Origin: Candidatus Eiseniibacteriota bacterium
GTDB taxonomy: Bacteria > ARS69
Length of the DNA: 40,683 nucleotides
Assembly (NCBI GenBank): GCA_052390515.1
Contig: JBQTGV010000066.1
Location: forward strand, 1 to 40,683
Reading direction: 5' to 3'
Both the position numbers and the translations under genes were made by a program. Position 1 is the stretch's first letter. Each line of letters opens with the position of its first letter. Below the pieces are notes generated by a model, which saw nothing but the letters and a program-made list of their open reading frames with translations, had not been told where the DNA came from and did no database searches. Below, piece after piece: positions 16,250 to 33,131 of this stretch.

Positions 16250-17201
16250 GTCCGGACGGGAAGCCGCGACGGCGATCCGCTCGGTGGAGTGGACGCTGGA
16301 CGCACCCGGGCGCCTGGACCGCACCGTCACCACGCTGCCCGCGCCCACGGCCGAGGAAGTTCTCGTCGCGACGCGGGTGGGCGCGGTCAGCCCGGGCCTC
16401 GAGCGCGCGCTCCTGCACGGCACCTGTCCCGCGGTCACCGCCCGCGCGTATCCACGCCAGCCGGGCGGACTCAACGTGGTCGTCATCCGCGAGTCGCAGG
16501 ACCGCTCGCTCGTCGGAGACCGCGGCATCGCCCTGCTCGGACACCGGGACTTCGCCCTGATCCCGTACAACCGCTTCCTGCGCGTGCCGCCCGGGATCTC
16601 CGACGAGATCGCGCTGCTCGGCGTGCTGGCAGCGGACGCGAGCTACGCCGTGGAAGTGGCCGCGGTGGATCCGGACGAGGACTGCCTGGTGATCGGCGGC
16701 GGCATCCTCGGCGCGCTCATCGCCTGGGAGCTGTGCCGCCGCACGCGCGGGGCGGTGCGCATCGTCGAGGCGGACCGCGACCGTCGCGAGCTGCTGGAAC
16801 GGATCCGCTTCCCCTCCGAGGTGCGCGTCTCCGATCGGCCGGGCCGGTACCTCTTCCACTCCGTGTTCGAGTGCGCGAACTCCGCGGCCGCCTTCGAGCT
16901 CTCGCAGGAGGCGGCGCGGGCGGGCGGCTCCATCGTGGTCGTGGCGGACGGGTGCCACGAGCCGTACCCGCTGGCGGGCGGGTTCTTCGCCAAGGGTCTC
17001 TACCTGGGCAAGCCCGGCAGCCATCCCGATCTTCGCGGCTTCCTGAACGAGTGGTTCTCCCGGCGAGAGGACCGCGCGACGCTCGTCGCCAACGCGTTCC
17101 GCGAGGACATCCGCTTCGACGAGTTCCCCCAGTCCTACCTCAAGGCCGTCCTGGCGCCGATCTCGGAGCGGGCCGGCCTGCTGCCTCGCGTCCTGTACTG
17201 A
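16239..17201 (+). CDS. Medium-chain dehydrogenase/reductase-like protein (Zn-ADH fold), atypical
   Basis: EVLVAT..AVSPGLE, YPRQPG, VIGGGILG Rossmann motif, VFECA. Canonical Zn ligands not seen. Confidence 0.7.
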   Translation: MSTESGREAATAIRSVEWTLDAPGRLDRTVTTLPAPTAEEVLVATRVGAVSPGLERALLHGTCPAVTARAYPRQPGGLNVVVIRESQDRSLVGDRGIALLGHRDFALIPYNRFLRVPPGISDEIALLGVLAADASYAVEVAAVDPDEDCLVIGGGILGALIAWELCRRTRGAVRIVEADRDRRELLERIRFPSEVRVSDRPGRYLFHSVFECANSAAAFELSQEAARAGGSIVVVADGCHEPYPLAGGFFAKGLYLGKPGSHPDLRGFLNEWFSRREDRATLVANAFREDIRFDEFPQSYLKAVLAPISERAGLLPRVLY

Positions 17202-17258
17202 CGGGTCCGCCTGGCCGCCTCACGTCCTGTACTGACGGGTCCGCCAGCCGCCTCGCGT
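17183..17258. repeat. Imperfect tandem duplication (~33-34 bp, 2 copies plus partial) of the dehydrogenase 3' end including its stop
   Basis: GCCTCGCGTCCTGTACTGACGGGTCCGCCTGGCC / GCCTCACGTCCTGTACTGACGGGTCCGCCAGCC / GCCTCGCGT. Confidence 0.9.
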
Positions 17259-17379
17259 GCTGTCCGGGCGGGCCGGTCCTTTCGCGTTTCCTGAGCGATC
17301 CTGACATCCGGAGGGGCGCGTCAACCCTTCCAGCCTGCCGACCGATGAAGAGGGACGCCCTGGCTGCCTGCGCGCGAGA

Positions 17380-20300
17380 ATGCACGGAACTCGGTCACCC
17401 GCTTGGATGCTTCCGACGCTTGTCGCGCTCGCCGCGGCGAGCTCGCCGCCGTCCGCCCGCGCCGCGTCGTACCTGCTCGGCGCGGAGAAGGACGCGTGGA
17501 TCTCGGAAGCTTCCCCCGTCCAGAACCACGGCACCGACACGGAGCTGTACTCGAAGCAGGAGCTCCTCGCCGACGAACGCCCGATGCTGCAGTTCGATCT
17601 CAGCGCGATCCCCGCGGGCTCCGCCGTCAAACAGGCGACGCTCGGGCTGTTCGTGACGCAGGCCGACTCGTCCCGCCCGATCGACGTCCACCGGGTGACG
17701 AGCCCGTGGAACGAGGCCAGCGTCGTCTGGCTCAGCCACGGTCATCAGTACGACCCGTCCACGCGCTGGGGATCGTTCGTGGCCGCGCCGGCGGGACCGG
17801 TCACGGTGGACGTGACCGCGCTGGTGCAGCTCTGGCTGGACGGCAAGAAGGGCGGCAACCAGGGCCTCACGCTTGCCTCCACCGCGATCGGGACGAAGTC
17901 GCACTTCGCCAGCCGGGAGTGGGCCGTGGGCGGCGAGCAGCCCTGGCTCTACATCCTCACGGATCTGCCGACGGCCCGCGTGGCCACGGGCACGTACGTC
18001 GGCGACGGCTCCACCAGCCGCTCCATCACCGGGCTCGGCTTCGCGCCCGATCTCGTCCTGGTGAAGGGCGACCACGGGCTGCAGGCAACGGCCCGCTCCT
18101 CCACGATGCCCGCGGGACTGTCCAAGCCGCTCGGCACGAGCGATGCCCTCGTCTCGTCTCGCGTCGTCTCGCTCGATGCGAACGGCTTCACCATCGACGC
18201 GGACAGCGAGGTCAACGAGCCGGGCACGGACTTCCACTGGACCGCCTTCCGCGAGGGAACCGGACCTCCCTTCGCCGTGGGCACCTACACCGGCGACGGG
18301 CTCGACGACCGCAGCATCGCCGCCGGCTTCCAGCCGGGTTACGTCATCGTGATGGGCGCTTCGAACGAGCAAGCGATGCAGCGCTTCGGTTCGCAGGGCC
18401 TGAACAGCAGCCTGGAGTTCAAGTCCGGCTCGGAGCTCTCCGACCGCATCCAGCGCTTCGAGGCAGCCGGTTTCCAGGTGGGCTCGAACATATCGGTGAA
18501 CGAGATCGACGAGGAGTTCCACTGGGCCGCGTGGGCAGCGATGCCCGGCCAGCTCGCGGAGGGCACGTACACCGGCGACGGGACCGACGACAGATTCATC
18601 CCCGCGGGCTTCCAGCCCGACTGGGCGATGGTCCGCATCCGCACGAACGCGGACGGCTCGGTGCACCGCCCGTCGACGCTCGCCGGCGACGCGACATTGC
18701 CCATCTATCCCGGCGGATCCTTCGCCGACGGGATCCAGGCGCTGGCGCCGGGCGGCTTCGAAGTGGGAACCGACAGCGCGGTGAACCGGTCCGGCGTCGA
18801 TCTCTTCTTCGTAGCCGCCCGGGACTCGGTCGCCACGGCGCCGGCCGACCTGCACGTGGCCAAGGTCGTCGACCTGGCCGCGCCGAACGAGGGAGACACG
18901 GTCGGCTACACCGTCACCCTGCAGAATCTCGGGCCCGGCGACGCGAGCGGCGTGGTCGTCGCGGACTCCCTCCCCGCCGGCGTCACCTGGATCGGCGACT
19001 CGCCGACCCAGGGCGTGTACGACTTCGCAGGCGGTCTCTGGACCGTCGGGGACGTCGCCGCGGGAGACAGCGCGACGCTGTGGGTCTCGGCAACGGTCGA
19101 TCCCGGCACGGGCGGCACGACGATCGTGAACGGTGCGTCGATCGCCGCGTCCTCGTCCCTCGATCCCAGCTCCGGCAACGACGCCGACTCCGCCGCCATC
19201 GACGTGCAGAGCGCAGACCTGGGCGTCGTCAAGACGTCCAACCGGAGCACGGCCTCGGAGAACAGCTCGGTCACGTTCACCGTCTGGCTCCACAACTACG
19301 GACCCGATTCCGCCACCTCCGTCGTGGTGGCCGACACGCTCCCGTCCCAGGTCACGTTCGTCGGCGCGGTCCTCAGTCAGGGCACGTACGACGACGCCAG
19401 CGGTCTGTGGGACCTCGGCGCCCTCGCGGCGGGCGACAGCGCTTCGCTCCGGATCACCGTCCAGGTCGACCCCGGAACGGCCGGCCAGGTCGTGACGAAC
19501 ACGGCGCTCCTGGCCGGGGCCGATCAGGCCGATCCGAACGCGGCGAACGACTCCGACTCCGCGTCGTTCAACGTGCTCTTCATCGTGACGCTCGACGTCG
19601 CCAACCTCTCCGTGATCAAGACCGTGGACATCCCGACCCCGGATGAGGGAGCCACGTTGCACTTCGCCGTCAACCTGACGAACTCCGGTCCGCAGGACGC
19701 GACCGGCGTCGAAGTGACCGACGTGCTCCCCGCGGGTCTCACCTACCTGGCCGACTCCACGAGCGCCGGCAGCTACGACTCCGGTACGGGGACCTGGACC
19801 ATCGGCGACGTGTTCGCCCCGAGCACCGAGACATTGGACCTGTGGGCGACGGTGGATGCGGGCACGGCCGGCGCAACCCTGAGCAACGTGGCTCTCGTGA
19901 CCGCCACCGAGCAGGACGACACGAACCCGGCGAACAACGCGGACACCGCGTCCGTCAGGGTGCTCGCCGCGGACCTTTCCCTGGCGAAGACCGTCGACGT
20001 CGCTCTCCCGAAGGAGGGCGACACCGTGCACTTCACGGTGTGCGTCCGCAACGAAGGCCCGGACTCGGCAGCCGGCGTCGAGGTGACCGATTCCGTGCCG
20101 CCCGGTCTGACCTGGACCGGGGATACGCCGAGCCAGGGCACGTACGACTCCGGGACGGGCGTCTGGGTCGTCGGCGCAGTCGCGGTGGGTGACAGCGCGA
20201 CGCTCGACCTGGCGTGCTCGGTCGACGCCGGTGCCGCGGGATCGTCCATCCAGAACGTCGCGGCGGTCACCGCCTCGTTGCGGGGCGATCCGGACGGCAG

Positions 20301-23300
20301 CGACGATGCCGCCGCGGCCATGCTCTACGTTCCCGCCGTCGATCTCGCGGTGACGAAAGTCGTCGATGCGCCCGCCGCCAACGAAGGAGACGCCGTCGTC
20401 TTCACGATCGGCGTGGCCAACGCCGGGCCGGACTCGGCGAGCGCCGTCCTGGTCGCCGACCTGCTGCCGGTGGGCCTCACCCATCAGTCGGACTCCGCGA
20501 CGCACGGGATCTACGCTCCCGGCGCCGGTCAGTGGGACCTGGGCTCGCTGGCCGCCGGAGACAGCGCGACGCTCTCGATCACCGCCACCGTCGATCCGGG
20601 GACCGGCGGCACGACGCTCTGGAACGCCGCGGCGCTCGCCGCCCTCGATCAGACCGACGTCGCCGCCGCGAACGACGCCGACTCCGTTTCGGTGAGCGTG
20701 CGTCTCGCCGACCTCGCCGTGGCGAAGACTGTGGACGATCCGAACGCGCAGGAGAACGCGACGGTCGTCTTCGGGATCGTGGTGACGAACGCCGGGCCCG
20801 ACTCGGCCGCCGGCATCCAGATCCTGGACGCGCTGCCCGCCGGGGTCACCTACGTGTCGCACGTGGTGACGCTCGGCTCGTGGAACCCGCTGAGCGGCGC
20901 GTGGACCCTCGGGACGCTGGCCGCCTCCGACAGCGCCACGCTGACCGTCACCGCGACGGTCGACCCGGGCACGGCCGGCTCGACGCTCGTGAACGTCGCC
21001 TCGGTGGCCACCTCCGACGTGGCCGACCACCAGCCGGCGAACGACTCCGCGTCCGCCTCGATCGTCGTGCCGGCCGGCATCACCGTCTTCGCCTCCCAGT
21101 CCACCGCGGTAGCGAACCCGGGCGACGCGGACGTGCACCTGCTCACGTTCTCGGTGGCCAACTCGCACCCCTTCCCGGTGACGCTGGACGCGGTCTCGCC
21201 GGCCAACGTGACCGCCGGTCCCGGCACCGTGGCCGAGCGCGACGCCGAGCTGGGCACGCTGACCCTCTGGCAGGACGACGGCGACCTCGTCTTCGAGCCG
21301 GCGGCCGATTCGCCGCTGGCCTCGGCGACGGCGGCAGGCGGCTCGATCCCGTTCGCCCCGCTGTCGTTCGCGCTGCCGTCCGGCGCGCTGGCCTCGTTCC
21401 ACGTCGCCGCGGATCTCGCCCTGACGGCCCGGGACGGCGACACGCTCGATCTCCAGCTCTCGGGGCCCGCAAGCGTCGCGTTCGTGGAGGCCGTGAATCA
21501 CCTGAGCACCTGGCCGCTCGCGCCGGCCGGAGCCGTCACCGTGGACGGCGCGGTCGCCGCGCAGATCACGGCGTCGGCGCTCGCCGACTCGACTCTCGCC
21601 GCGGGGAGCAGCGGTGCCGTCGTGTTCGCCGCCGTCGTTCCCGCGAACGGCTACGCCGCCGACGTGCTGCAGGCGTTCCGCATCGAGAACCAGGGAACCG
21701 CGGTGGCCGGAACGGACGTCGCCGCACTGCGGCTGTGGGTGGACGGCGGCGACGGCGCTCCCGACCTCGGCGCCGGGGACGACGCGGCCGTCGCCGCGCT
21801 GGTCGGGCTCGGCTCCGCGTGGACCGCCTCCGCGCTGTCCGTTCCGGTTCCGCCCGGAGGCGCACGTCTCTTCGTCAGCGCCGACCTCGCCGCCGACGCC
21901 ACGCACGCTTCGACAATTCGCCTCCGGCTGCCGGCCGCTCCGGTCGCGCTGACCGTGGCGAGCGCGAACGACGGGCCGATGGACGCCGCGGTCGTCTGCC
22001 CGGCGTTGTTCACGATTCAGGGCGCTCCGAGCGACATCACCGTGAGCGCGGCGCAAACCGGCGCGACGCTGCTTCCCGGCGCCGCCGCGCTGGAGGTGCT
22101 GCGCCTCATCGTCTCCAACGAGGGCGCCGAGGCCGAGACCCTCTCCACGCTGACGCTCACCAACATGACGACCGGACCGGGCACGCAGTCCGAGCGCGAC
22201 GGCGAGTGGTCGCCGCTGCAGCTGGCCGTGCTCAAGGGTGGGATCGGCGTCGGGGTCGGCGGGCTGCGCGCGGGGTTCTCGAACGGTACCGTCACCTTCG
22301 CGATGAACACGGTCATCGCCGCGGCGGAGTCGGTTACGGTCGTCGTCACGTCGGGCGCGTCGCTCTCCGCGCGGGACGGAGACATGCTCGATCTCGCGGT
22401 AGCCGACTCGACCGACTTCGTCTTCACGCGCCCCGTCTCGCTCGTGCGGACGTGGCCGCTCGCGCCTGCCGGAGCGTTCCCCGTCGACGGCATGTCCGTC
22501 GCGCAGGTGGGCGTCTCGGGGACCGCCCTCCCCATCAACCTGTTGACCGGCTCGACGAACAACCCGTCGCTCGCGGTCACCATCCCCGCGAACGGCTATG
22601 CCGCGGACACGCTGCGGACCCTGAACGTGAAGAACCTGGGGACCGCCGCCGCCGGATCGGACATCGAGCGCGTGGACCTGTGGCTGGACGTGGACGGGGA
22701 CGCCATCCCCGAGCCGGGCGGGGCCGATGCCGCCGGCCGTCTCGGGCCGATGGTCTTCACCGGCGACCGCTGGGAGATCACCGGTCTCGCCGTGCCGGTG
22801 CCAGCCGCGGGCCGCCCCGTCTTCGTCACCACCGACATCGCCGCGCAGGCCACCGTCGGCTCGAGCGTCACCCTGGTGATCCCCGGCTCCCCCGACCTCG
22901 GTGCGTTCATGGCCAGCACGAACGACGGTCCGCTGGACGGCGACGCGCCGGCGGCCACCGCGCGCCAGACGCAGCTCGTCTCCACGTCGGATCGGATCGT
23001 GCTGACCACGTCGGCGGTGGCGCCCGGGACCGTCGCGCCGGGGCAGACCGACGTCGTCCTGCTCTGGGTGCGGGCCAAGAACGACTACACCGTTTCCAAG
23101 ACGATCACCGGGATCACGGTCACGAACGGCACCGCCGGCAGCGGAACGCAGGCGAACCTGGACGCGCAGATGGGCACGCTCCGTCTCCGGACGAGTACCC
23201 CGACCGCCCCGCCGATCGCGCAGGCCATCTTCGCCTCGGGCCGTGCCCCCTTCGGCTCCTTCGCCTTGACCCTCGCTCCCGGCGAGACTCGCGCCCTCTT

Positions 23301-26300
23301 CGTCACCGCGGATCTCTCGCTCGCGCTCGCGTCGGACGGCGACGCGCTCGGCGCTTCGGTCGCCGGTTCGCCGGACGTGACGTTCTCCACGCCGACCACC
23401 GTCGTGGCGGGCTGGCCCCTCGACTCCGGCGCTGCGTGGACCGTCGACGGCATGCTGGCCACCCAGATCGCCAATCATGGCGCCCCGCCGCTGACGCTCG
23501 GCCCTTCGGAGGGCCCGGCGCTCGCGCTGGACGTGACGCTGCCGTCGAACGGGTACGCGGCCGACGTTCTTCGCGGCGTGACCGTGGTCAACGACAGCAC
23601 CGCGACCGCCGCGGACGTCGCCGCGATGCGGCTCTACCGGGACGGCGGCGACAACTTCTTCGACGCCGGCGCGGGGGACGACGTCGACCTCGGACCGATG
23701 AGTCCCCTCGCCGGCGCCTGGACGAGTCCGGCACTCGCCGAGCCGCTGGGACAGAACGGCGCGCGCTGCTTCGTGGCGGTGACGTCCTCGGCTTCGCTGA
23801 CCGACGGGCGAACCGTGCGGCTGGCGATCCCGGTCGGCGGCGTCAACGTCGAGTCGGGCAACGACGGGCCCACCGACGCGCGCATCGCCAACACGAACAC
23901 CATGACGCTCTCCACCGCGGCGCTGCTGGCCACGCTCGACCTCGCGCCGAACGCCAGCACGATCGGCAGCCCGGTGACGGCCACCTTGCTCGTCCGCAAC
24001 GCCGGAGACTCCTCCATCGTGGGCATCACGCCCTCCGCGCTCATCGCCGACAGCGCCGGCGTGCTCGCGCCGGCTGGCGGTCCCGTGCCGTCCTCCTTCT
24101 CGCTGGCCGCCGGCGACTCGGCCGCGTTCACCTGGACGTGGACGGCGGCCGCCGCGGGAATCGTGCGCCTCACCGGATCGGTGTCCGGGACGGAGCTGGG
24201 TACGGGCCTCCCGCGGCAGTCGCTGGACGCCACCTCCGACGCGCACCAGGTGTTCGTGGAGGCGCAGGACATCGAGCTCTTCCCGACGGAGTCGATGCCC
24301 TTCTCCATCAGCCGCGGCCAGACCGGCGTCGTGCCGCTCTCGCTCACGTTCACGAACAACGTGGGCGGCGGCGGCTCGGACGTGGAGATCACGCGCGTGC
24401 GCTTCCGTCTGGTCGACGGGACCGGCGCGGGCATCGTCCCCGCCGATCTCCTGGCCCGTGTCGTCGTCAACGAAGGCACGAACGCCTACGCCACGGTCAC
24501 GTCGCTCCCCGCCGCGGGCGACTCCGTGGACCTCCTGCTCTCGCCCTTCCCGAAAGTCGCTGCCGCAGCCGGGCAGGTGACGCTCTCGCTCTCGCTGGAC
24601 ATCTCCGACACGACGACGGTCCCGGACTTCCGCCTGCAGATCCCCGGCAGCGCGTGGTTCGAGGCCCGGGACGCGACCAGCGGCGCGCCGGTCGCGGTGC
24701 TGCTCGCTCCGACGGAATCGTTCCCGATCGAGTCCGGGCTTGCGCGGGTGGTCGCCGAGGCGACCGAACTGGACGTCTCCGCCGTCCCCGGTCCGCCGGT
24801 CATCGCCGGACGCGGCCAGACCGACGTCCCTCTGCTCTACGTCGGTTTCCTGAACCCGGACCCGGACAGTCTCGCCGCCGACGTCCGTGTCAGCTCCTTC
24901 GAGGTGACGCTGGTCGATTCGCTCGGGGCGGCGATCGCGTCACCGGCGCAGTATCTGCAGCGCATCCGCGTGCTCGCTCCGTTCCAGGTGCTGCTGGCCG
25001 ACCGGCAGATCACCGCCTCGGACGACTCGACGATCGCGCTGGTGCTCTCGCCGCTGCTCTCCGTGCCGATGAACAACCCGCTCGTCGTGAGCCTCCGCGC
25101 GGACATCGCGGCGGCGGCACCGCTCGTGACCGTGCGTCTCGCGCTCGCCGATGCGCAGTCCTTCGACGCCAGGGACGCGAACACGGGGGCCGTGGTCCCG
25201 GTGATCTACGCGCAGACACAGGTCCTGGGCCCGCCCGTCATGCTCGTCCAGCCCGCCGACTCGGTCGCGGTCTCCGCCGTTCGCCGTCTCCCGCCCACGC
25301 TTCCGGTGGGGACCGCGGACGTCGCGGCCGCCGGCATCGTCGTCCGCCACCCCGGCGGCGGCACGGTGGGTCCCGTCGCGGTCCAGTCCATGACGCTGGA
25401 GTGCCGCGACGGATCCGACAGCCCGCTCCTTCCCGCCGCGTACCTCGACCAGGTGCGCGTCCTGCGCCGCGGCGCGCAGGTCGGCCTCGTGTCGAACCTT
25501 CCCGGGTCCGGCGGCTCGTTCACGGTCGTGCTCTCGGGGCCGCAGGTCGCACCCGGCCAGGCCGACACGCTGGAGGTGCGCCTCGACCTGGAGGTGACCG
25601 CACCGGCGACGCTCTTCCGGCTCGCCCTGCCGCAGACCGGCCTCGTCGTCACTGACGCGAGCCTCGGTCTGCCCGTGTCGGTGGTGGCCGACTCCCTCGC
25701 CTCCTTCCCGCTCTCCTCCGGCGTTACGCAGATCGTGTCGCCCGCGCGCCAGCTCGTCGTCGGATTCGAGGACCGGATGCCGCCGGTGCTCGCCGGCGGT
25801 GGCTCCGCGGTCTCCTTCGCCGCCCTCTCGTTCACGAACCCGGCCGCGCCGACCGCCGGACCGATCTTCCTCGACAGCCTCGCCGTGCGCGCCGCGGACG
25901 GCGCCGGCCTCCCGCTCGATCTCGGAGACGCCGCCGTCCGGCTCGAAGCGTGGGAGGGCGATTCCCTGCGGGCGTCGAGCGGCGATCTCGTCGCCGGCGA
26001 TGCGCTCGGAACGCTGCACCTCTCCCCGAGTCTCGCGCTCCCGCCGGGAGTGACGCGGGATCTCGAGCTGCGCGCCGCGTACCGCGCCGGCACCGCCGTC
26101 ACGTCCCTCCGTCTCGGTCTCGAGGCGCAGGACGTCGGCCCGGCGCAGCCGTCGAGCTCGCTGCTGGCCATCGCCGTGCTGGCCCGCGACGGTCAGTCCT
26201 TCCCGTTCTGGACGGAGGCCGGCAACTTCTCCGGCGCGACGCTCGAGGAGAGCTGGTCCAACTTCCCGAACCCGTTCGCCGCGGGCCGTGATCACACCAC

Positions 26301-26547
26301 GTTCGCGTTCTTCCTCGTGCAGCCGGCGAAGGTCACGCTCAAGCTGTGGACCGCGCGCGGCGACGCCGTACGCACCCTCGTCGAAGGCCGGGCGCTGCCG
26401 GCCGGGCTGCACCAGAACCTCGCCTGGGACGGCCGCAACGGCCGCGGCGACACCGTGCTCAACGGGATCTACCTGGCGGAGCTCTCCGTCGACTACGACG
26501 ACGGCGCGAGCGCGCGAGCGGTCCGCAAGGTCGCGGTCGTCCGATGA
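17380..26547 (+). CDS. Giant (3055 aa) secreted surface protein: DNRLRE-like N-domain, 3 GTYxGDG repeats, 6 DUF11 repeats, 3 large PxNGYAAD repeats, C-terminal FlgD-Ig/T9SS-like sorting domain
   Basis: Signal peptide; KDAWISEASP..NHG..LQFDLSAIP; (A/V)(D/N)LxxxK repeats at 18844-21070; C-term SNFPNPF...WDGRNGRG..VLNGIYL. Start may be ATG 17380 or 17407. Confidence 0.92.
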   Translation: MHGTRSPAWMLPTLVALAAASSPPSARAASYLLGAEKDAWISEASPVQNHGTDTELYSKQELLADERPMLQFDLSAIPAGSAVKQATLGLFVTQADSSRPIDVHRVTSPWNEASVVWLSHGHQYDPSTRWGSFVAAPAGPVTVDVTALVQLWLDGKKGGNQGLTLASTAIGTKSHFASREWAVGGEQPWLYILTDLPTARVATGTYVGDGSTSRSITGLGFAPDLVLVKGDHGLQATARSSTMPAGLSKPLGTSDALVSSRVVSLDANGFTIDADSEVNEPGTDFHWTAFREGTGPPFAVGTYTGDGLDDRSIAAGFQPGYVIVMGASNEQAMQRFGSQGLNSSLEFKSGSELSDRIQRFEAAGFQVGSNISVNEIDEEFHWAAWAAMPGQLAEGTYTGDGTDDRFIPAGFQPDWAMVRIRTNADGSVHRPSTLAGDATLPIYPGGSFADGIQALAPGGFEVGTDSAVNRSGVDLFFVAARDSVATAPADLHVAKVVDLAAPNEGDTVGYTVTLQNLGPGDASGVVVADSLPAGVTWIGDSPTQGVYDFAGGLWTVGDVAAGDSATLWVSATVDPGTGGTTIVNGASIAASSSLDPSSGNDADSAAIDVQSADLGVVKTSNRSTASENSSVTFTVWLHNYGPDSATSVVVADTLPSQVTFVGAVLSQGTYDDASGLWDLGALAAGDSASLRITVQVDPGTAGQVVTNTALLAGADQADPNAANDSDSASFNVLFIVTLDVANLSVIKTVDIPTPDEGATLHFAVNLTNSGPQDATGVEVTDVLPAGLTYLADSTSAGSYDSGTGTWTIGDVFAPSTETLDLWATVDAGTAGATLSNVALVTATEQDDTNPANNADTASVRVLAADLSLAKTVDVALPKEGDTVHFTVCVRNEGPDSAAGVEVTDSVPPGLTWTGDTPSQGTYDSGTGVWVVGAVAVGDSATLDLACSVDAGAAGSSIQNVAAVTASLRGDPDGSDDAAAAMLYVPAVDLAVTKVVDAPAANEGDAVVFTIGVANAGPDSASAVLVADLLPVGLTHQSDSATHGIYAPGAGQWDLGSLAAGDSATLSITATVDPGTGGTTLWNAAALAALDQTDVAAANDADSVSVSVRLADLAVAKTVDDPNAQENATVVFGIVVTNAGPDSAAGIQILDALPAGVTYVSHVVTLGSWNPLSGAWTLGTLAASDSATLTVTATVDPGTAGSTLVNVASVATSDVADHQPANDSASASIVVPAGITVFASQSTAVANPGDADVHLLTFSVANSHPFPVTLDAVSPANVTAGPGTVAERDAELGTLTLWQDDGDLVFEPAADSPLASATAAGGSIPFAPLSFALPSGALASFHVAADLALTARDGDTLDLQLSGPASVAFVEAVNHLSTWPLAPAGAVTVDGAVAAQITASALADSTLAAGSSGAVVFAAVVPANGYAADVLQAFRIENQGTAVAGTDVAALRLWVDGGDGAPDLGAGDDAAVAALVGLGSAWTASALSVPVPPGGARLFVSADLAADATHASTIRLRLPAAPVALTVASANDGPMDAAVVCPALFTIQGAPSDITVSAAQTGATLLPGAAALEVLRLIVSNEGAEAETLSTLTLTNMTTGPGTQSERDGEWSPLQLAVLKGGIGVGVGGLRAGFSNGTVTFAMNTVIAAAESVTVVVTSGASLSARDGDMLDLAVADSTDFVFTRPVSLVRTWPLAPAGAFPVDGMSVAQVGVSGTALPINLLTGSTNNPSLAVTIPANGYAADTLRTLNVKNLGTAAAGSDIERVDLWLDVDGDAIPEPGGADAAGRLGPMVFTGDRWEITGLAVPVPAAGRPVFVTTDIAAQATVGSSVTLVIPGSPDLGAFMASTNDGPLDGDAPAATARQTQLVSTSDRIVLTTSAVAPGTVAPGQTDVVLLWVRAKNDYTVSKTITGITVTNGTAGSGTQANLDAQMGTLRLRTSTPTAPPIAQAIFASGRAPFGSFALTLAPGETRALFVTADLSLALASDGDALGASVAGSPDVTFSTPTTVVAGWPLDSGAAWTVDGMLATQIANHGAPPLTLGPSEGPALALDVTLPSNGYAADVLRGVTVVNDSTATAADVAAMRLYRDGGDNFFDAGAGDDVDLGPMSPLAGAWTSPALAEPLGQNGARCFVAVTSSASLTDGRTVRLAIPVGGVNVESGNDGPTDARIANTNTMTLSTAALLATLDLAPNASTIGSPVTATLLVRNAGDSSIVGITPSALIADSAGVLAPAGGPVPSSFSLAAGDSAAFTWTWTAAAAGIVRLTGSVSGTELGTGLPRQSLDATSDAHQVFVEAQDIELFPTESMPFSISRGQTGVVPLSLTFTNNVGGGGSDVEITRVRFRLVDGTGAGIVPADLLARVVVNEGTNAYATVTSLPAAGDSVDLLLSPFPKVAAAAGQVTLSLSLDISDTTTVPDFRLQIPGSAWFEARDATSGAPVAVLLAPTESFPIESGLARVVAEATELDVSAVPGPPVIAGRGQTDVPLLYVGFLNPDPDSLAADVRVSSFEVTLVDSLGAAIASPAQYLQRIRVLAPFQVLLADRQITASDDSTIALVLSPLLSVPMNNPLVVSLRADIAAAAPLVTVRLALADAQSFDARDANTGAVVPVIYAQTQVLGPPVMLVQPADSVAVSAVRRLPPTLPVGTADVAAAGIVVRHPGGGTVGPVAVQSMTLECRDGSDSPLLPAAYLDQVRVLRRGAQVGLVSNLPGSGGSFTVVLSGPQVAPGQADTLEVRLDLEVTAPATLFRLALPQTGLVVTDASLGLPVSVVADSLASFPLSSGVTQIVSPARQLVVGFEDRMPPVLAGGGSAVSFAALSFTNPAAPTAGPIFLDSLAVRAADGAGLPLDLGDAAVRLEAWEGDSLRASSGDLVAGDALGTLHLSPSLALPPGVTRDLELRAAYRAGTAVTSLRLGLEAQDVGPAQPSSSLLAIAVLARDGQSFPFWTEAGNFSGATLEESWSNFPNPFAAGRDHTTFAFFLVQPAKVTLKLWTARGDAVRTLVEGRALPAGLHQNLAWDGRNGRGDTVLNGIYLAELSVDYDDGASARAVRKVAVVR

Positions 26548-28586
26548 TGCGCCACCACGCTCTCCTCGCGGCGCTCCTCGCGCTCGCCGCCGCTCCGGCC
26601 GCGGCGCAGGACGGAGGCACGACTTCGGTCTTCGCCGACGGCGCCGGGAACCGCGCCCTGTCGCTGGGCGGCGCCTACGCCGCCATCGGCGGCGACGCCA
26701 GCTCACCGGTGTGGAACGCGGCCGGGCTGGGCTCGGTGCAGCGCGCCGAGCTGCAGGCCTCCTCGGCCACGCTCTACGGGCTGGACATCTCCGAGCAGTA
26801 CGCGTCCCTCGCGGTGCCGAGCTGGCGCTGGGGGACGGCCGCCTTCGCCTTCCGGCGCTTCGCGGTGAGCGGCGTGGAGCGCCGCAGCGATCGCAACGTG
26901 CTGCTCGAGGAGGACATGTCCGACTCGCAGACCGAGCTCAAGCTGTCCTTCGCACGTCCCATGGGCGAAGGCTGGGACGCTGGCGGTTCGGTCAAGGTGC
27001 ATCGCCAGAGCCTGGCCGGGTACGACGACTTCGGCGTGGGCCTCGACCTGGGCGTGCTCCTGCGGCCCGGCGCCATCCTCGGGCGCGAGGGCGAGTGGAT
27101 GGACCGGCTGCAGCTCGGGCTCGCGCTTCAGAACGTCATCGAGCCGACGCTGCGTCTCGATCAGGACGCCGTCCCCGACCCGACCGCGCTCCGCGCCGGC
27201 TTCGCCTGGCGCCAGCCGTACCGCCTCGGCGGCTTCGGACCGGGTCACGTGCTGGCCGCCTTCGACGTCGTGCACACGCCCGGACTCTCCGGCGAAACCC
27301 ACGCCGGCATCGAGGTGGCTCCGCATCCGCTGCTCGCGCTGCGCTTCGGTCTGGACGACGGCGAGCTCACCGCCGGCACCGGAGTACGCTGGAACCTGTA
27401 CGCGTTCGACTACTCGATGGAGAACGGACCTTTCGACAGCGTGCACCGCTTCGGACTGACGCTGCAGTTCGGTACCACGCTGGACCAGCGACGCGCCGAA
27501 GCCCGCCGCCGGGAGGACGAAGCGTTCCGTGTACGCCTCGCGGAGTCGTTCGCGGAGCGGGAGGCCGAGCGCGTCGCCGAGCTGCTCGAGCAGACACGCG
27601 CGCTGCTCGCCGAGGATCGGGTCGACGAGGCGCTGGAGCGCGTCGCGACGATCGTCGCGCTCGATCCGGATCACGCCGATGCGCGCGCGCTGGAGTCCAA
27701 CGCGCTGCTGGCCAAGGCCGCGCGCCAGGAGGCCACCGGGCAGCTCGCCGACGCGACCGTGCTGTACGCGCGCGTCCTGGCTCTTTCGCCCGAGCACGCG
27801 GACGCCAGGGCCGGGCTCGAGCGCTGCCGCACCGAAGGCGATCTGCGCGCCGCCCGCTCCGCGCGCATCCGCGAGCTGTTCGGGCAGGGCCTGGACGCCT
27901 TCACCGCCGGGCAGCTCGTCGTGGCCAGAGACACGTTCCGCGACATCCTGAATCTCTCTCCCGAGGACGCCGAGGCCCGCGCCATGCTCGAACGCACGCG
28001 CATCGCGATCCGCGGGAGGATCGCCGACTTGGTCGAGCAGTCCGGGCGCTTCCTGGATCGCGGCCTCCTCGACGAGGCCGGCGGGCTGCTGATCGAGGCG
28101 CAATCCCTGGACCCCTACGCGAGAGGCCTGGCCGAGGCGATGGCGCGCCTCGACCGCGAGCGGGCGGCGCGCCAGGAGGGGGCGCGCGGCCAGCAGCTCG
28201 CCGCGGCCAAGCCCACGCCGTCCGGCGTCGCCGCGCAGGGGCCGGCGCTCTCCACCAAGAAGCGCAAGGAGATCGCCGACCTGTACGAGCGCGGCATGGA
28301 GGCGATCGATGAGTCGCGGCCCGACGACGCGCTGCGCTACTGGGAGCTCGTCTGGCTCGCCGATCCCAGCTACCTGAACGTCGCCGACTTCTTGAAGCGC
28401 GAGTACCTGCTGCGCGGCCTCGAGTCCTTCTCGCGGGGCCGGCTGGAGGACGCCGTCGGCCTGTGGGAGAAGGCGCTCAAGGTCGATCCCGAGGACGAGA
28501 AGACGCTCGGCTACCTGCAGCGCGCGCGGGAGCAGCAAATGCGCACGCGGGAGATCCTGGGATCCGAGACGGAGGGCGCGCAGTGA
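26544..28586 (+). CDS. PorV/PorQ-family outer-membrane beta-barrel fused to a C-terminal TPR/coiled-coil region
   Basis: Signal peptide; GAGNRALSLGGAYAAIGGDASSPVWNAAGL; GLDLG; barrel ending HRFGLTLQF, then multiple TPRs. Start overlaps the upstream stop. Confidence 0.88.
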   Translation: MMRHHALLAALLALAAAPAAAQDGGTTSVFADGAGNRALSLGGAYAAIGGDASSPVWNAAGLGSVQRAELQASSATLYGLDISEQYASLAVPSWRWGTAAFAFRRFAVSGVERRSDRNVLLEEDMSDSQTELKLSFARPMGEGWDAGGSVKVHRQSLAGYDDFGVGLDLGVLLRPGAILGREGEWMDRLQLGLALQNVIEPTLRLDQDAVPDPTALRAGFAWRQPYRLGGFGPGHVLAAFDVVHTPGLSGETHAGIEVAPHPLLALRFGLDDGELTAGTGVRWNLYAFDYSMENGPFDSVHRFGLTLQFGTTLDQRRAEARRREDEAFRVRLAESFAEREAERVAELLEQTRALLAEDRVDEALERVATIVALDPDHADARALESNALLAKAARQEATGQLADATVLYARVLALSPEHADARAGLERCRTEGDLRAARSARIRELFGQGLDAFTAGQLVVARDTFRDILNLSPEDAEARAMLERTRIAIRGRIADLVEQSGRFLDRGLLDEAGGLLIEAQSLDPYARGLAEAMARLDRERAARQEGARGQQLAAAKPTPSGVAAQGPALSTKKRKEIADLYERGMEAIDESRPDDALRYWELVWLADPSYLNVADFLKREYLLRGLESFSRGRLEDAVGLWEKALKVDPEDEKTLGYLQRAREQQMRTREILGSETEGAQ

Positions 28587-30634
28587 CGGAGAAGACGAGC
28601 GCGGGCGGGCGGCGCGTCATCAGCATCCGCTGGATCGTGGCCGGCGCGGCGATGGCGCTGACCGCGTTCTCCGTGCTGGGTGTCGGAGCTTTCGCCGAGC
28701 GCAACGCGCGCCGCACCCTGACCCACGAGCTGCAGGCCCGGCTGCTGCTGGAAGTCAGGAACCTCGCCCTGACCAGCTCCGGAGCGCTGCTCAGCGAGTT
28801 CCCGGAGCTGACCCTGTCACCGATCCTCTCCAAGATGCGCGAGGACGAGGACGAGTTCGCGTTCGCCGTGGTGGTCGACAAGTCCGGAGTGATTCGCGGA
28901 CACGCCGATCCGCGGCTGATCGGCGAGAAGTTCGAGCCGGCCGCGCCGCTGCGGCCGATCCAGGTCTCCGCCTCGCTCGGTCCGGGCGAGGTGGTGTTCG
29001 CCGACGAGTCCGTCTTCCTGGCACAGACGCCGGTCAGCCGGCGCGGCGAGCTGGGGAACGAGATCGGCACCGCCTGGGTGGCGCTGCGCCGCGATTACGT
29101 CGAGTCGACCATCGACGAGGCCCGCCGCGGACAGATCCCGCTGGTGGTCGCGCTGATGGCGGCCGCCTCGGGAGCGGCGTTCGTGCTCGTCTCCGTCCTG
29201 CTGCGTCCCGTCGGCGCGCTCCGCGCGGGTCTGGAGCGCATCGGCCGCGGCGACCTGGACACTCCGGTCCGGCTCCGGGACCGCACCGAGCTCGGCCTCC
29301 TGGCCGAGACGATGAACGAGATGTCGGAGCGTCTCAAGCAGGCCCAGGTGGAGCACGTCGAGAAGGAGCGGCTGGCCCGCGAGGTGGAGCTGGCGCGGGA
29401 GATCCAGTCTTCGCTGCTTCCCGCGGGCGACCTGCGCGTCGCGGGCTGCGTCATCGACGGCTCGCATCGTGCGGCCGCGGAGGTCGGCGGCGACTACTGG
29501 GACGTCTTCCCGCTCGCCGACGGACGTATCGGCGTGGCCATCGCCGACGTGTCCGGCAAGGGCTTGGCGGGATGCCTGGTCACGTCGATGCTCGCCGCGC
29601 TGGTGCGCGCGTTCCGGGATACGGAGTCCTCGCCGGCCGCGCTGCTCACCCGTCTGGAGAAGAACCTCGTCGGCTCGTTGCGTCCTGGCACGTTCATCAC
29701 CATGTTCTACGGCATCCTGGATCCGCAGGGACGCGCGTTCCGCTTCGCCTCGGCGGGCCACTGCCCGCTGCTGGTGTGGCGTGCGCGCGAGCGTCGCGTC
29801 GAGTGGCACAAGACGCGCGGCATCCCGCTCGGCGCCGTGCGCGGAGACGCGCTCGCCGCCACGCTGCACGACGAGTGCATCCACCTGGCCCCGGGCGACC
29901 TCGCCTTGCAGTACACCGACGGCATCAACGAGGCCTTCGACGCGAGCGGCCGGAACCAGTTCGGGTTCGAGCGGCTGGAGCACACCGTCGCGGAGTCCGC
30001 ACGGGGCGGCGCGCGCGCGGTGATCGACGCCATCCGGCGGCGCGTCGGCTCGTGGGCAGGGGATCGCCCGCCGCTGGACGACGAGACCCTTCTGGCGGTC
30101 GGAGCGGAGGCGGAGATCGTGGTCGCCTTCGACGGGGCACCCGACCCGGAGGTCGTGCTGGAACGGGCCCGCGCCGTGGGGCGGCGCCTGGCCCTGCGAG
30201 GCCACGTCGACACCCTGGTCGGCTTCGCCGGGTGGATCGCCGAGACGCCGGCCCTCGGCGACCTGCCGCCCCGTGCCGCCAAGGTGCTGGAGATGGTGCT
30301 CTACGAGGTGGCGGCGAACATCGCCGAGCACGGCCTCCGGAATGACGCGGCCCGCATGTTCGAACTCTGGTGGGCGCCCGGGCCGGCCGATGCTCCGGTA
30401 ACGGGCGGGACCTTCGCCTTCGTCGACGACGGCAAGCCCTTCGAGCCGATGGGCGGCCGGATCGACCTGCGCGAGTCGGCGGTTCGCCGGCGAGGGCGGG
30501 GGCTCGGTCTCGAGATCATCCATACGGCGACGAAGGGCGTCGCGTACCACCCGAAGACCCCTGCCGGGAACGTGACGCTCCTGAAGTTCGACCCGGCGAA
30601 GATCCGGACCGAGGAGGAGGTGGCTCATGGGTAA
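28583..30634 (+). CDS. Membrane sensor: extracytoplasmic domain, HAMP, SpoIIE/RsbU PP2C phosphatase and C-terminal RsbW-like HATPase kinase
   Basis: Two TM segments; RPV..L...RIGRGDL...ELGLLAETMNEM; GGDYWD, IADVSGKG, YTDGINEA, DDET; YEVAANIAEHG, DDGKPF, GRGLGL. Confidence 0.92.
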   Translation: MTEKTSAGGRRVISIRWIVAGAAMALTAFSVLGVGAFAERNARRTLTHELQARLLLEVRNLALTSSGALLSEFPELTLSPILSKMREDEDEFAFAVVVDKSGVIRGHADPRLIGEKFEPAAPLRPIQVSASLGPGEVVFADESVFLAQTPVSRRGELGNEIGTAWVALRRDYVESTIDEARRGQIPLVVALMAAASGAAFVLVSVLLRPVGALRAGLERIGRGDLDTPVRLRDRTELGLLAETMNEMSERLKQAQVEHVEKERLAREVELAREIQSSLLPAGDLRVAGCVIDGSHRAAAEVGGDYWDVFPLADGRIGVAIADVSGKGLAGCLVTSMLAALVRAFRDTESSPAALLTRLEKNLVGSLRPGTFITMFYGILDPQGRAFRFASAGHCPLLVWRARERRVEWHKTRGIPLGAVRGDALAATLHDECIHLAPGDLALQYTDGINEAFDASGRNQFGFERLEHTVAESARGGARAVIDAIRRRVGSWAGDRPPLDDETLLAVGAEAEIVVAFDGAPDPEVVLERARAVGRRLALRGHVDTLVGFAGWIAETPALGDLPPRAAKVLEMVLYEVAANIAEHGLRNDAARMFELWWAPGPADAPVTGGTFAFVDDGKPFEPMGGRIDLRESAVRRRGRGLGLEIIHTATKGVAYHPKTPAGNVTLLKFDPAKIRTEEEVAHG

Positions 30635-30980
30635 CGAGTTCTCGATCGAGAAGATCGGGGCGAAGGACACCGTGGCGATGTTCCGCGTGGCCGGCCGCCT
30701 CGACGCGAAGAGCGCGCAGGAGTTGATGCGCGCCTGCCGCGACGCGCGCGCGCACGGCCAGCGGCGGGTCATCGTGAACCTCGCGGGGGTGACGTTCGTC
30801 GCCTCCAGCGGCATCGGAACGTTGCTGGCTCTCACCGAGGAGTTCAAGGAGGCGGCGGGCAGCATCCACTTGGTCGCGCTGTCCGACGCGGTGACGTCCG
30901 TCGTGGACCTGCTGAATCTCGGCCAGTTCCTCAATCTCGGTCAGACGGAGACCGAGGTGCTGCAGGCGATCGGAACGTAG
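30627..30980 (+). CDS. STAS-domain anti-sigma factor antagonist (RsbV/SpoIIAA-like)
   Basis: VAGRLDAKSA, VIVNLAGVTFVASSGIGTLL. Confidence 0.93.
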   Translation: MGNEFSIEKIGAKDTVAMFRVAGRLDAKSAQELMRACRDARAHGQRRVIVNLAGVTFVASSGIGTLLALTEEFKEAAGSIHLVALSDAVTSVVDLLNLGQFLNLGQTETEVLQAIGT

Positions 30981-32306
30981 ATGTTCTCGCTGTGGTCCAG
31001 GAAGGCGAACCCTCCGCCGGCCGAACCGCCGAGGGAACCCGAGCGCGGACCCGAGCCCCATTCGCACCGGGAGCTCGGACTGCTCTCTCTGCTCGAGCTC
31101 TCCAACGAGCTCAACGTGCGGGCCGACGTGTTCGAGATAGCCGACGTCGGGCTGTTCAATCTCATGGGCCACTTCGGGTGCGCGCGCGGAGCACTGTGGC
31201 TCCTGTCCGACGACAACGCCCAGGGCGCGGTGCTGGTCCGCGCGCAGGGAGTGCCCGATTCCGTCGCGCAGGGGCTCGGCACGCTGTGGATGCGGTGGTT
31301 CGCCACGCGCTCGTCGGCGATCTCCGAGCCCGTGCTGGTCGACGACCTGCGCGACCTCGGATCGCTTCCGGGACTCGACCTGGCCGTGCAGGCCAACATC
31401 GGTCTCTTCGCCCCGGTGGCGGTGCGCAGCCGCATGCTCGGACTTCTGGCGCTGGGCCGGCGCGTCGGCGGCGGCGACTTCGGTCTGCTCGAACGCGAGG
31501 TGCTGCAGGCATCGCTGAACCTGGTCGCCGTGGCGATGGACAACACCCACCTGTACAACCGCGCGGTCGAGAACAATCGGCGCCTGCGCCGCGCGAACGA
31601 GCAGCTCACCGAGATGGACCGCATCAAGTCCGAGTTCCTGAGCAACATGAATCACGAGCTGCGCACGCCGCTGACCATCATCTCCGCGTACCTCGACATG
31701 GTCATCGGCGCGGAGCGGGACGACTCGTGCCGCGACCACCTGCGCATCATCAAGGAGCAGACCACGCACCTGCACTCCATGGTCGTGAACGTGCTGGACT
31801 TCTCGAGCCTCTCGCGCGACGACCTGGAGATCCGCACGGCGCGCGGCGACGTGAAGGAGGTCCTGCGCGAGTACTACGTGGACCGGCGGCCGGGCGTCAC
31901 CGCGGAGCTCCGCGAGCTCGTCTTCTCGGGTGCCTCCGACGTGCCTCCGGCGCTCTTCGACCGTCATCGGCTGCTGCAGATCGTCGACTCGCTCGTGGAG
32001 AACGCGGTGAAGTTCACTCCGCCGGGAGCCCGCATCCACGTTCGCGTCGAAGCGGAGCGTGCGCCGGGCCGGGACCGCGTGCGCGTCGACGTGGAGGACA
32101 ACGGTCCGGGGATCCCCCCGGATCGCCTGCCGCACATCTTCGAGTCGTTCCGCCAGGGCGACGGATCGGGCACGCGCGAGCACGGCGGCATGGGGCTCGG
32201 ACTCGCGCTGGCCAAGCAGCTCGCGGAAAAGATGAACGGCGAGCTTTCGGTGGGCACCGAGATCGGCGCCGGGACGATCTTCACGCTGCGGCTGCCGGCG
32301 GCGTAG
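30981..32306 (+). CDS. Cytoplasmic GAF-domain sensor histidine kinase
   Basis: GAF-like N-terminus; KSEFLSNMNHELRTPL, LVENAVKFT, VEDNGPGIP, FESFRQGD, GMGLGLA. Confidence 0.93.
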   Translation: MFSLWSRKANPPPAEPPREPERGPEPHSHRELGLLSLLELSNELNVRADVFEIADVGLFNLMGHFGCARGALWLLSDDNAQGAVLVRAQGVPDSVAQGLGTLWMRWFATRSSAISEPVLVDDLRDLGSLPGLDLAVQANIGLFAPVAVRSRMLGLLALGRRVGGGDFGLLEREVLQASLNLVAVAMDNTHLYNRAVENNRRLRRANEQLTEMDRIKSEFLSNMNHELRTPLTIISAYLDMVIGAERDDSCRDHLRIIKEQTTHLHSMVVNVLDFSSLSRDDLEIRTARGDVKEVLREYYVDRRPGVTAELRELVFSGASDVPPALFDRHRLLQIVDSLVENAVKFTPPGARIHVRVEAERAPGRDRVRVDVEDNGPGIPPDRLPHIFESFRQGDGSGTREHGGMGLGLALAKQLAEKMNGELSVGTEIGAGTIFTLRLPAA

Positions 32307-32324
32307 CCCGTTCGGGACGGAACG

Positions 32325-33131
32325 CTAGCGCATCCGCCACGCCGTCGCGAGAGCGTCCGGCGTCGGCGGCACCGACTCGTCGATCCATCCCGCCGAGCGC
32401 ATCGCGGCCGCGATCACCGGCATCTCCCCACCCCACAGCGCGGGGTCCGACCGCCAGTCCTCGGGGAGAGCCTCGGCGAGAAGCGCCGCTGGTCCATCCC
32501 ACGCGATCCGACCCGCCTCGAGCAACAGCACCCTCTCGCACTCCTCGGCGACGAAGCCGAGGTCGTGGGAGACGATCACGTACGCCCGGCCGGAGCGGCG
32601 GATCTCGCCGAGCAGGTCGTGAAGGCGGTCGACTCCTTCCGCGTCGAGACCCGTGGTCGGCTCGTCGAGCACCACGAGGGACGGGGCGAAGGCCAGGATT
32701 CCGGCGATCGCCGCGCGGCGGGCCTCGCCGCCCGAGAGCGTCTCCGGCATCCGCCCGCCGATCGCGTCGGGATCCAGCCCGACGGTGCGGAGCGCGGCTC
32801 GCGCCTGATCCTTCGCCTGCTCCGGCGTCGCTCCGCGGTTCGCCGCGCCGAACGCGACGTCGGCGAGCACCGTCTCCTCGAAGAAGCCGCGCTCCGCTTC
32901 CTGGAAGACGAGTCCCGCTTCGGCGGCGCCGACGACGCGCCCGGCAGTCGGCGCCAGCAGCCCGGCGAGGATCGTGACGAGCGTCGTCTTTCCCGCGCCG
33001 GAGCGCCCGACGATTCCGATCCGCTCCCCGCGATGCACTTCGAGATCGATCCCACGGAGGACCTCGCGGGGGAACGCCAGGTCCGACGGCGGTGCCCAGC
33101 GTACGCCCTCGACCCGGACCAGCGCGCTCAC
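32325..33131 (-). CDS. ECF transporter ATP-binding subunit (EcfA2/CbiO-like)
   Basis: GRSGAGKTT, VFQEAERGFFEETVLADVAFG, LSGGE, LDEPTTGLD, SHD. GTG 33131 overlaps the upstream stop. Confidence 0.88.
   Translation of the reverse strand: MSALVRVEGVRWAPPSDLAFPREVLRGIDLEVHRGERIGIVGRSGAGKTTLVTILAGLLAPTAGRVVGAAEAGLVFQEAERGFFEETVLADVAFGAANRGATPEQAKDQARAALRTVGLDPDAIGGRMPETLSGGEARRAAIAGILAFAPSLVVLDEPTTGLDAEGVDRLHDLLGEIRRSGRAYVIVSHDLGFVAEECERVLLLEAGRIAWDGPAALLAEALPEDWRSDPALWGGEMPVIAAAMRSAGWIDESVPPTPDALATAWRMR

Follow-up and report, generated by a model that had tools for sequence, protein, structure and literature searches.

A conserved five-gene block joining a type IX-type surface protein and a tailed PorV-like barrel to a partner-switching module in Candidatus Eiseniibacteriota

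Analysis of contig JBQTGV010000066.1 of a Candidatus Eiseniibacteriota bacterium (GenBank assembly GCA_052390515.1), positions 1 to 40,683 of the forward strand, revealed a block of five plus-strand genes (g1 to g5) that fills 17380–32306 of this stretch, which in its whole length of 40,683 nt (65–74% G+C) is called the window in the following. The genes encode a giant surface protein of 3055 aa (g1, 17380..26547, based on its open reading frame (ORF) and domain matches), a PorV-like outer-membrane barrel with a helical/tetratricopeptide repeat (TPR) tail of 680 aa (g2, 26544..28586), a membrane sensor of 683 aa with the order Cache-HAMP-PP2C-RsbW-like (g3, 28583..30634), a STAS protein of 117 aa (g4, 30627..30980), and a soluble GAF histidine kinase of 441 aa (g5, 30981..32306). 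The ATG of g2 at 26544 lies within an ATGA overlapping the stop of g1 by 4 bp, the GTG of g3 at 28583 within a GTGA overlapping the stop of g2 by 4 bp, g3 and g4 overlap by 8 bp, the start of g4 being preceded by a GAGGAGGAGG stretch, and g5 begins at 30981 directly after the g4 stop at 30980 (0-bp gap). G+C content at third codon positions (GC3) of the five frames was 0.86–0.92. All five genes and all four tight junctions, which give the block a structure like that of an operon, stand as given in an earlier, sequence-only reading of this DNA.

The N-terminus of g1 resembles a signal peptide and is followed by a DNRLRE domain (aa 37–191), a DUF7483 domain (aa 202–420), six DUF11 domains (approximately aa 490–1230), a stretch of about 1650 aa matching no family, and, at the C-terminus, a sorting domain. 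The last 160 aa (26065..26544, plus strand) consist of a stretch preceding the C-terminal domain (CTD) and of the CTD itself, which is of the kind found in cargo of type IX secretion systems (T9SS) and terminates in KVAVVR. The C-terminal 100 aa matched the CTD of the PorU model (E-value 6.9e-5), and the tail scored 16.9 bits against Pfam FlgD_ig, under the cut-off of 27. In a predicted structure of the last 180 aa, calculated with 18 sequences as input, an Ig-like sandwich was found at aa 80–180 of the modelled piece with a predicted local distance difference test (pLDDT) value of 85–98, and this model resembled PorU 6za2 (root-mean-square deviation of 2.7 Å over 106 columns), PorZ 5m11, and FlgD domains. 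A BLAST comparison of g1 with itself for internal repeats returned the self match alone.

For g2, a match to the PorV/PorQ family NF033709 was detected (E-value 1.4e-21, 77.5 bits) that lies under the NCBIfam cut-off of 90 and is followed by TPR repeats; a six-frame search of the genome with the same family yielded 59.9 bits, also under the cut-off. Its signal peptide ends near AAAQ/D. The predicted structure (mean pLDDT 79.9) displayed a barrel of 14 beta strands at aa 68–309 (26745..27470, plus strand) and paired helices at aa 313–671, corresponding together with the TPR matches to a tail of about 360 aa (27480..28556, plus strand). The best two Foldseek hits of this model were PorV chains of the Flavobacterium translocon, namely 6h3i_F and 8gl6_F (TM score of 0.60 and 0.58 on the target), followed by FadL and TodX. 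Since a 14-strand barrel has both its ends on one side of the membrane, and even-stranded barrels as a general rule place both termini on the periplasmic side, the modelled tail is presumably periplasmic. Its tip (aa 569–671) is the most conserved part, holding most of the near-invariant tail columns, and is 31% identical to the tip encoded in the distant locus L116 (pairwise E-value 1e-15). Among the approximately eight PorV paralogues of the genome, g2 is the sole member with a long TPR tail and the one adjoining a sensor gene, and the junction between barrel and sensor genes was an overlap or a gap of at most about 60 bp in 13 of 13 loci measured. Searching the genome contigs with g2 alone gave three TPR-only matches and nothing more.

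The sensor g3 revealed two hydrophobic segments (TM1 within aa 12–38, TM2 within aa 183–213) on either side of a 144-aa Cache-like periplasmic domain (aa 39–182; 28697..29128, plus strand), followed by HAMP (aa 202–253), PP2C/SpoIIE (aa 313–506), and RsbW-like kinase (HATPase_c_2, aa 553–667) domains. HAMP, SpoIIE (144 bits), and HATPase_c_2 (32.5 bits, cut-off 27.4) were all above cut-off; the match of the periplasmic domain to sCache_3_2 (23.9 bits) was under the cut-off of 28.4, which orthologous sensors exceed, and the alignment showed an invariant stretch at aa 59–82 of this domain. Residues D304, D322, D446, D499, and D500, which we take to form the PP2C metal site, were invariant in seven of seven family sequences, as were E575, N579, D615, G617, G640, and G642 in the N and G boxes of the kinase domain. 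The small protein g4 matched STAS (56 bits) and the anti-sigma-factor antagonist family TIGR00377 (57.5 bits), both above cut-off, and its Ser60 (nt 30804–30806), invariant in all nine STAS proteins compared from three lineages, is a candidate phospho-serine and by analogy presumably the phosphorylation site. In g5, a GAF-like domain (aa 56–188) precedes HisKA (aa 216–277, 49.8 bits) and HATPase_c (aa 327–440, 114.3 bits). Though GAF_3 matched it only weakly (E-value 0.0013), GAF families matched six of 11 orthologous kinases, the N-terminal domain aligned throughout, and His225 within HisKA was invariant in 11 of 11. A domain search found no GGDEF gene in the five-gene block.

Three of these calls remained under threshold, i.e., the g1 tail, the g2 family, and the g3 Cache domain, and together with the weak GAF match of g5 they are backed by structure models or orthologues. 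The proteins thus turned out as the sequence-only reading had described them: a surface protein with a FlgD/T9SS-like CTD (PorU-model match and an Ig-like predicted fold resembling PorU and PorZ), a PorV-like barrel with a long TPR tail (a 14-strand model nearest to PorV chains, though with a family score under the cut-off), and a HAMP-PP2C-RsbW fusion, a STAS protein, and a GAF histidine kinase, which are confirmed by domain matches and conserved residues.

The sample of the phylum of this genome comprised 12 genomes of one family. Full-length g2 and g3 were found in the same eight of the 11 other genomes, all five genes were present in order in six of six fetched family loci, and the junction pattern of overlap, overlap, and 0-bp gap was repeated in the orthologous locus L038. 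As the flanks are conserved in the family too, five-gene order there is weak evidence when taken alone. In the three family genomes without the block, the flanks are intact and the upstream gene stands immediately next to the downstream ABC gene, which indicates that the five genes were gained or lost as one block.

Beyond the family, 21 other GTDB families retain the order of cargo tail, PorV-TPR barrel, and HAMP-PP2C sensor, with a STAS gene next in most loci that reach far enough. Loss of gene order had been named beforehand as a finding that would speak against the sequence-only reading, so that this result is in its favour. In genome G030, assigned like G050 to the same domain alone as this genome, a CTD protein and a PorV-TPR barrel are followed by a HATPase_c_2-Cache-HAMP-SpoIIE sensor, STAS, and GGDEF genes, and then by polysaccharide export genes, and in genome G050 a 3262-aa fn3 protein with CTD is followed by PorV-TPR, HAMP-SpoIIE, STAS, an RsbW-like kinase, SpoIIE-HATPase_c_2, and a second STAS gene. 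The barrel of G030 was matched in 113 of 121 sampled genomes of its phylum (E-values up to 1e-25), and all of 12 loci from 12 families of that phylum kept the cargo tail, the barrel, and the kinase-Cache-HAMP-PP2C sensor, with PorV-TPR identities down to 27%; STAS was present in nine and GGDEF in seven of these loci, two of which stop at contig ends. In the phylum of G050 (four genomes), the barrel adjoins the sensor in two of the three others, the third locus being too short to tell. A profile search of 400 further genomes, in which two candidates were scored per genome so that the counts are lower bounds, added at least 19 outside loci, ten of them combining cargo tail and barrel with a PP2C sensor within 1.5 kb.

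Closest in type to the block are seven loci from six other families, namely L116 (the second module of G104) and L148–L153 (G336, G354, G505, G361, G200, and G485). Cargo tail, barrel, and Cache-HAMP-PP2C sensor were found in all seven, and so was an RsbW-like kinase, in varied form: fused to PP2C in G336 and G354, encoded by a separate gene in G505 (L150) and G200 (L152), fused to STAS in G104 (L116) and G485 (L153), and N-terminal to STAS in a 312-aa frame in G361. The position of the fusion varies as well, being C-terminal in g3 and N-terminal in L062, L154, and L155. Such shuffling of the kinase fusions argues for functional linkage, and conservation over large distances with shuffled domain fusions is a signature of proteins working together. 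STAS was detected in six of the seven loci (in L150 it was not found with the query used), and a histidine kinase alignable with g5 follows the module in all seven, nearly full length in six and with its N-terminal and ATPase domains in L116, so that the kinase counts as part of the module. In the sister type, a GAF-GGDEF or GGDEF protein (diguanylate cyclase) stands at the end. Judged from gene content, the terminal enzyme defines subtypes, with a histidine kinase here and GAF-GGDEF or GGDEF in the sister type. The recurrence of the arrangement across lineages is not expected by chance, and on the comparative sequence evidence the five genes are a real functional module conserved across phyla.

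Some individual loci displayed further variants. Genome G104 carries both subtypes, one locus (L098) ending in GGDEF and the other (L116) harboring a STAS-RsbW fusion, a second STAS gene, and the histidine kinase. In G200 (L152, 1633–2901), a second STAS gene and a sigma-70 family gene lie after that of the kinase, hinting that some versions may also feed a sigma factor. In G289 (L155, 887–6426), the kinase-Cache-HAMP-PP2C sensor has C-terminal helix-turn-helix domains and is followed by a ParA-like ATPase, STAS, and a GAF-GGDEF protein.

With respect to the cargo, g1 orthologues within the family were 44–49% identical (six of six loci), and module cargos of different lineages shared no common domain apart from the last 160 aa or so, which mostly end in K[VI]AV[VL][RK]. 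The g1 tail scored 156, 172, 89.7, 85.1, 107, and 105 bits against six closest-type cargos, compared with only 55.8 bits for the best of 57 other matches in its own genome. Among the 40 and 49 matches of the G030 and G050 cargo tails in this genome, g1 ranked first both times (60.1 vs. 45.4 bits and 60.8 vs. 45.8 bits, respectively), and the reverse search with the g1 tail placed the G030 module cargo first of 21 matches. On balance, with the reverse searches in other genomes weighed below, cargo tail and barrel look co-inherited as a dedicated pair. Export of g1 through a T9SS and its continued attachment to its barrel would fit these features, and binding of the cargo CTD by g2 is suggested by the adjacency of the two genes and the co-inherited cargo tail.

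The genome assembly (4.27 Mb, 95% complete) also revealed parts of the export machinery. The SprA model reached 521 bits summed over one 2105-aa frame, above cut-off, and two PorU-like frames were found, both under cut-off, the better one with 340.8 bits against 420 and truncated by a contig end. The PorU model had 51 matches in total, about 47 of them to its CTD alone, consistent with approximately 50 CTD proteins. A second pair of a 1125-aa FlgD_ig-type CTD protein and a PorV-like barrel lies on contig C161 (L061, 8898–13810); its neighbours include no signalling genes, and a cytidylyltransferase-like gene and a gene for RNase E/G come next.

Based on these data, we tentatively propose, with somewhat less than even confidence, that the block works as one envelope-spanning partner-switching pathway. 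The cargo would leave the cell via the T9SS and stay bound through its special C-terminal region to its own barrel, the tail of which would span the periplasm so that the conserved tip (aa 569–671) could contact the periplasmic domain of g3, which has the invariant stretch at aa 59–82. Whether the cargo-barrel pair is loaded, pulled, or lost would then shift the balance between the kinase and phosphatase activities of g3, and this balance would set the phosphorylation of STAS Ser60. Unphosphorylated STAS may bind and control the adjacent GAF histidine kinase by analogy to STAS-like proteins acting on Pseudomonas diguanylate cyclases, with SiaC-SiaD (PMC8457831) and HsbA-HsbD (PMC5085249) as precedents for such control of an output enzyme. 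Finally, g5 would signal to a response regulator encoded elsewhere. The sequence-only reading had put forward much the same chain, from a surface cue sensed by the cargo-barrel pair via the TPR tail to control of the histidine kinase by STAS, and this chain is plausible and in part backed by the comparative data. More tentative still is a wider version of this proposal, in which a trans-envelope device widespread in lineages of the Fibrobacteres-Chlorobi-Bacteroidetes (FCB) type would use a tethered cargo and a TPR arm reporting contact, tension, or loss to a Cache-HAMP kinase/phosphatase, with phospho-STAS driving interchangeable outputs, i.e., the GAF histidine kinase in this block, elsewhere a diguanylate cyclase or DNA binding. 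A complex prediction for the g2 tail (aa 312–680) and the g3 periplasmic domain (aa 40–186) scored 0.36 against 0.24 for the control, which gives no verdict and was used neither for nor against binding.

Several observations weigh against this pathway. The contacts between tail and sensor and between STAS protein and histidine kinase are ones that we infer. No receiver domain was found in the five genes, the 32 flanking ORFs, or the scanned ORFs of L116 and L148–L153, and no response regulator of g5 is known. The GldK, GldL, and GldM models had no match in the genome, though controls for GldL and GldM were silent in every genome, so that the sensitivity of these two is doubtful; of the components suggested for checking (SprA and PorKLMN), an SprA-like frame was recovered and GldK, GldL, and GldM were not, and the genome may rely on T9SS-like export driven by another, or a strongly divergent, motor. 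Nine of the 19 outside loci of the profile search showed no PP2C sensor in their 1.5-kb flanks: two end at or inside the barrel gene, one has a HAMP/HisKA match instead, three have cargo and barrel only, and three the barrel only. Reciprocity of the cargo tails is not uniform, since the reverse search with the g1 tail placed the module cargo third of 26 matches in G050 and fifth of 26 in G097, and in G104 the first match was the cargo of the second, closest-type module. Tailed PorV-like barrels following large CTD proteins also adjoin other machines, namely MotA/ExbB and ExbD (L065, 9219–13606), a receiver, a TPR protein, and a CHASE2 cyclase (L064, 8725–13949), and a FliG-like TPR protein (L063, 6894–10516), and tailed barrels coupled to machines of the inner membrane may form a broader theme.

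Conserved adjacency is equally expected of a regulator beside its target operon, as membership in one regulon makes genes travel together. Cache domains usually bind small molecules and the sensor may not need the barrel; sCache_3_2-type sensor domains are indeed present, and the sister type, adjoining polysaccharide export genes and ending in a diguanylate cyclase, has a typical biofilm regulator layout. A small molecule would then be the ligand of the sensor, which by way of STAS and histidine kinase would govern the expression or display of the surface protein and barrel next to it, and the tail would serve secretion or anchoring only. However, the barrel-sensor junctions of the 13 loci measured are tighter than usual regulator-target spacing, only one of about eight PorV paralogues in the genome is long-tailed and precisely that one adjoins the sensor, and the conserved part of the tail is its tip, so that we consider this explanation rather unlikely. 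Less probable again, in our view, is a feedback on secretion load, in which the cargo CTD itself is the ligand of the sensor in the periplasm and the barrel is merely a dedicated shuttle or anchor. In Porphyromonas gingivalis, signalling is reported to be activated when the sensor kinase PorY is bound in the periplasm by the CTD of PorA, a T9SS cargo (PMC12152298), and conservation of the cargo with the module is confined to its last 160 aa; such a feedback leaves the conserved 360-aa barrel tail unexplained, though, and the conserved cargo region can equally serve barrel binding. A classical anti-sigma switch, in which the RsbW-like domain of g3 holds a distant sigma factor that is freed by STAS while the histidine kinase is an unrelated neighbour or a parallel output, could account for the g4 score above the cut-off of the anti-sigma-factor antagonist superfamily and for the second STAS and sigma-70 family genes right after the kinase in L152. 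But a sigma-70 family gene is near only one of the seven closest-type loci, the kinase gene follows STAS in all seven, and the domain search found no sigma factor in the five genes or the 32 scanned flanking ORFs, in agreement with the earlier statement that the block holds neither a sigma factor nor a response regulator; this reading is the least probable of those considered, and we regard it as improbable.

In comparison to known systems, the proposed envelope-spanning pathway combines features that are otherwise found apart. Partner switching by RsbU/RsbV/RsbW and SpoIIE/SpoIIAA/SpoIIAB is established and shares three activities with the block, those of a PP2C phosphatase, of a GHKL serine kinase, and of a STAS protein whose serine is conserved, while here no sigma factor lies in the locus, kinase and phosphatase are fused, and envelope genes are linked. 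In FecA-FecR-FecI, a barrel in the outer membrane that extends into the periplasm communicates with a regulator of the inner membrane. This is the same logic, but the families are unrelated, an anti-sigma/extracytoplasmic function (ECF) sigma pair takes the place of the phospho-switch, and there is no secreted cargo. CrsR-CrsA of Shewanella has the same logic of fused phosphatase/kinase plus STAS as the HsbR-HsbA-HsbD system of P. aeruginosa. In the latter, PP2C and an RsbW-like kinase in one polypeptide act on a STAS protein that controls a non-sigma enzyme (PMC5085249, PMC6482189). The Hsb input is a cytoplasmic receiver fed by a phosphorelay, in contrast to the periplasmic Cache-HAMP input of g3, an outer-membrane partner or a cargo is not known there, and outputs of the Hsb and CrsR-CrsA type are a diguanylate cyclase, FlgM, or RpoS, whereas here it is a GAF histidine kinase. 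SiaABCD of P. aeruginosa likewise combines in one operon a HAMP-PP2C membrane phosphatase with a kinase, a small phospho-switch protein, and the enzyme serving as output (PMC7647112, PMC8457831). SiaD is a diguanylate cyclase, as found at the end of the sister type, and not a histidine kinase, and Sia is not known to have a barrel or cargo; with 53.4 bits against the SiaA model cut-off of 700, g3 is not a SiaA orthologue.

On the envelope side, the T9SS shuttle PorV with its CTD cargo (6h3i, 8gl6; PMC10994853) is similar in its 14-strand PorV-like fold and the Ig-like cargo CTD, and the genome here has an SprA-like frame and PorU-like frames, the latter under cut-off. Unlike PorV, g2 is one of approximately eight paralogues, stands directly after one cargo, has a 360-aa TPR tail that PorV lacks, and scores under the family cut-off. 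PorA-PorXY-SigP of P. gingivalis (PMC12152298) also has a T9SS cargo signalling to an inner-membrane sensor through the periplasm, but there the sensor is a two-component kinase and the ligand the CTD itself, and no tailed barrel or partner switch is known.

A full-text literature search, with subscription journals outside its coverage and within the portions of text it returned, found no paper linking PorV or type IX secretion with partner switching, SpoIIE/PP2C, or STAS, or PorV with tetratricopeptide or HAMP, and turned up nothing beyond an unrelated review for STAS partner switching with a histidine kinase and the outer membrane; the view of the sequence-only reading that the arrangement had not been described before was upheld within this coverage. 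To our knowledge, nothing is known of a link between type IX secretion and Ser/Thr phospho-switches. From its genes, the real and conserved module appears to be a hitherto undescribed form of partner switching that takes its input from a T9SS-type cargo and a tailed barrel and has a histidine kinase as output, by a mechanism that we infer. Beyond a handful of models, little is understood of the ways in which bacteria monitor what happens to the proteins on their surface. Should the contacts of tail with sensor and of STAS with kinase prove true, the module would offer a testable route of sensing surface contact or adhesin state in many uncultured phyla, a new input class for partner switching, and a new class of regulators for histidine kinases. 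If the wider device exists as proposed, cell-surface signalling would gain a third kind next to TonB-dependent transducers and Rcs-type lipoprotein sensing, and control of a histidine kinase by a STAS protein would be seen for the first time. Both the size of the proteins and the definition of the predicted contacts would permit direct biochemistry.

Upstream of the block, a citrate synthase gene and a gene for a 320-aa protein (16239–17201) are followed by a gap of 179 bp before g1. The latter gene was considered as a sixth member and rejected, as it is retained in the three family genomes without the block. The downstream genes, encoding two ABC ATPases, TPR proteins, LarC, and LarB, converge on the block. 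A scan of 16000–33500 for promoters and terminators gave no promoter-like and one terminator-like site (minus strand), both not above shuffle expectation, and is uninformative for this organism. Three direct repeats of 33–37 nt (78–81% identity to the first copy, spacing 34 and 33) at 17169–17272 cover the end of the gene for the 320-aa protein and the spacer preceding g1 and may be a regulatory site for the block. At the start of the window, an ORF for a LEM-3-like GIY-YIG nuclease and an ORF with a partial phage-integrase match (270–881 and 1024–1785, minus strand) may be the remnant of a mobile element. Further on, a Ser/Thr protein kinase of 770 aa with a TPR-rich C-terminal half is encoded at 2549–4861 (minus strand).

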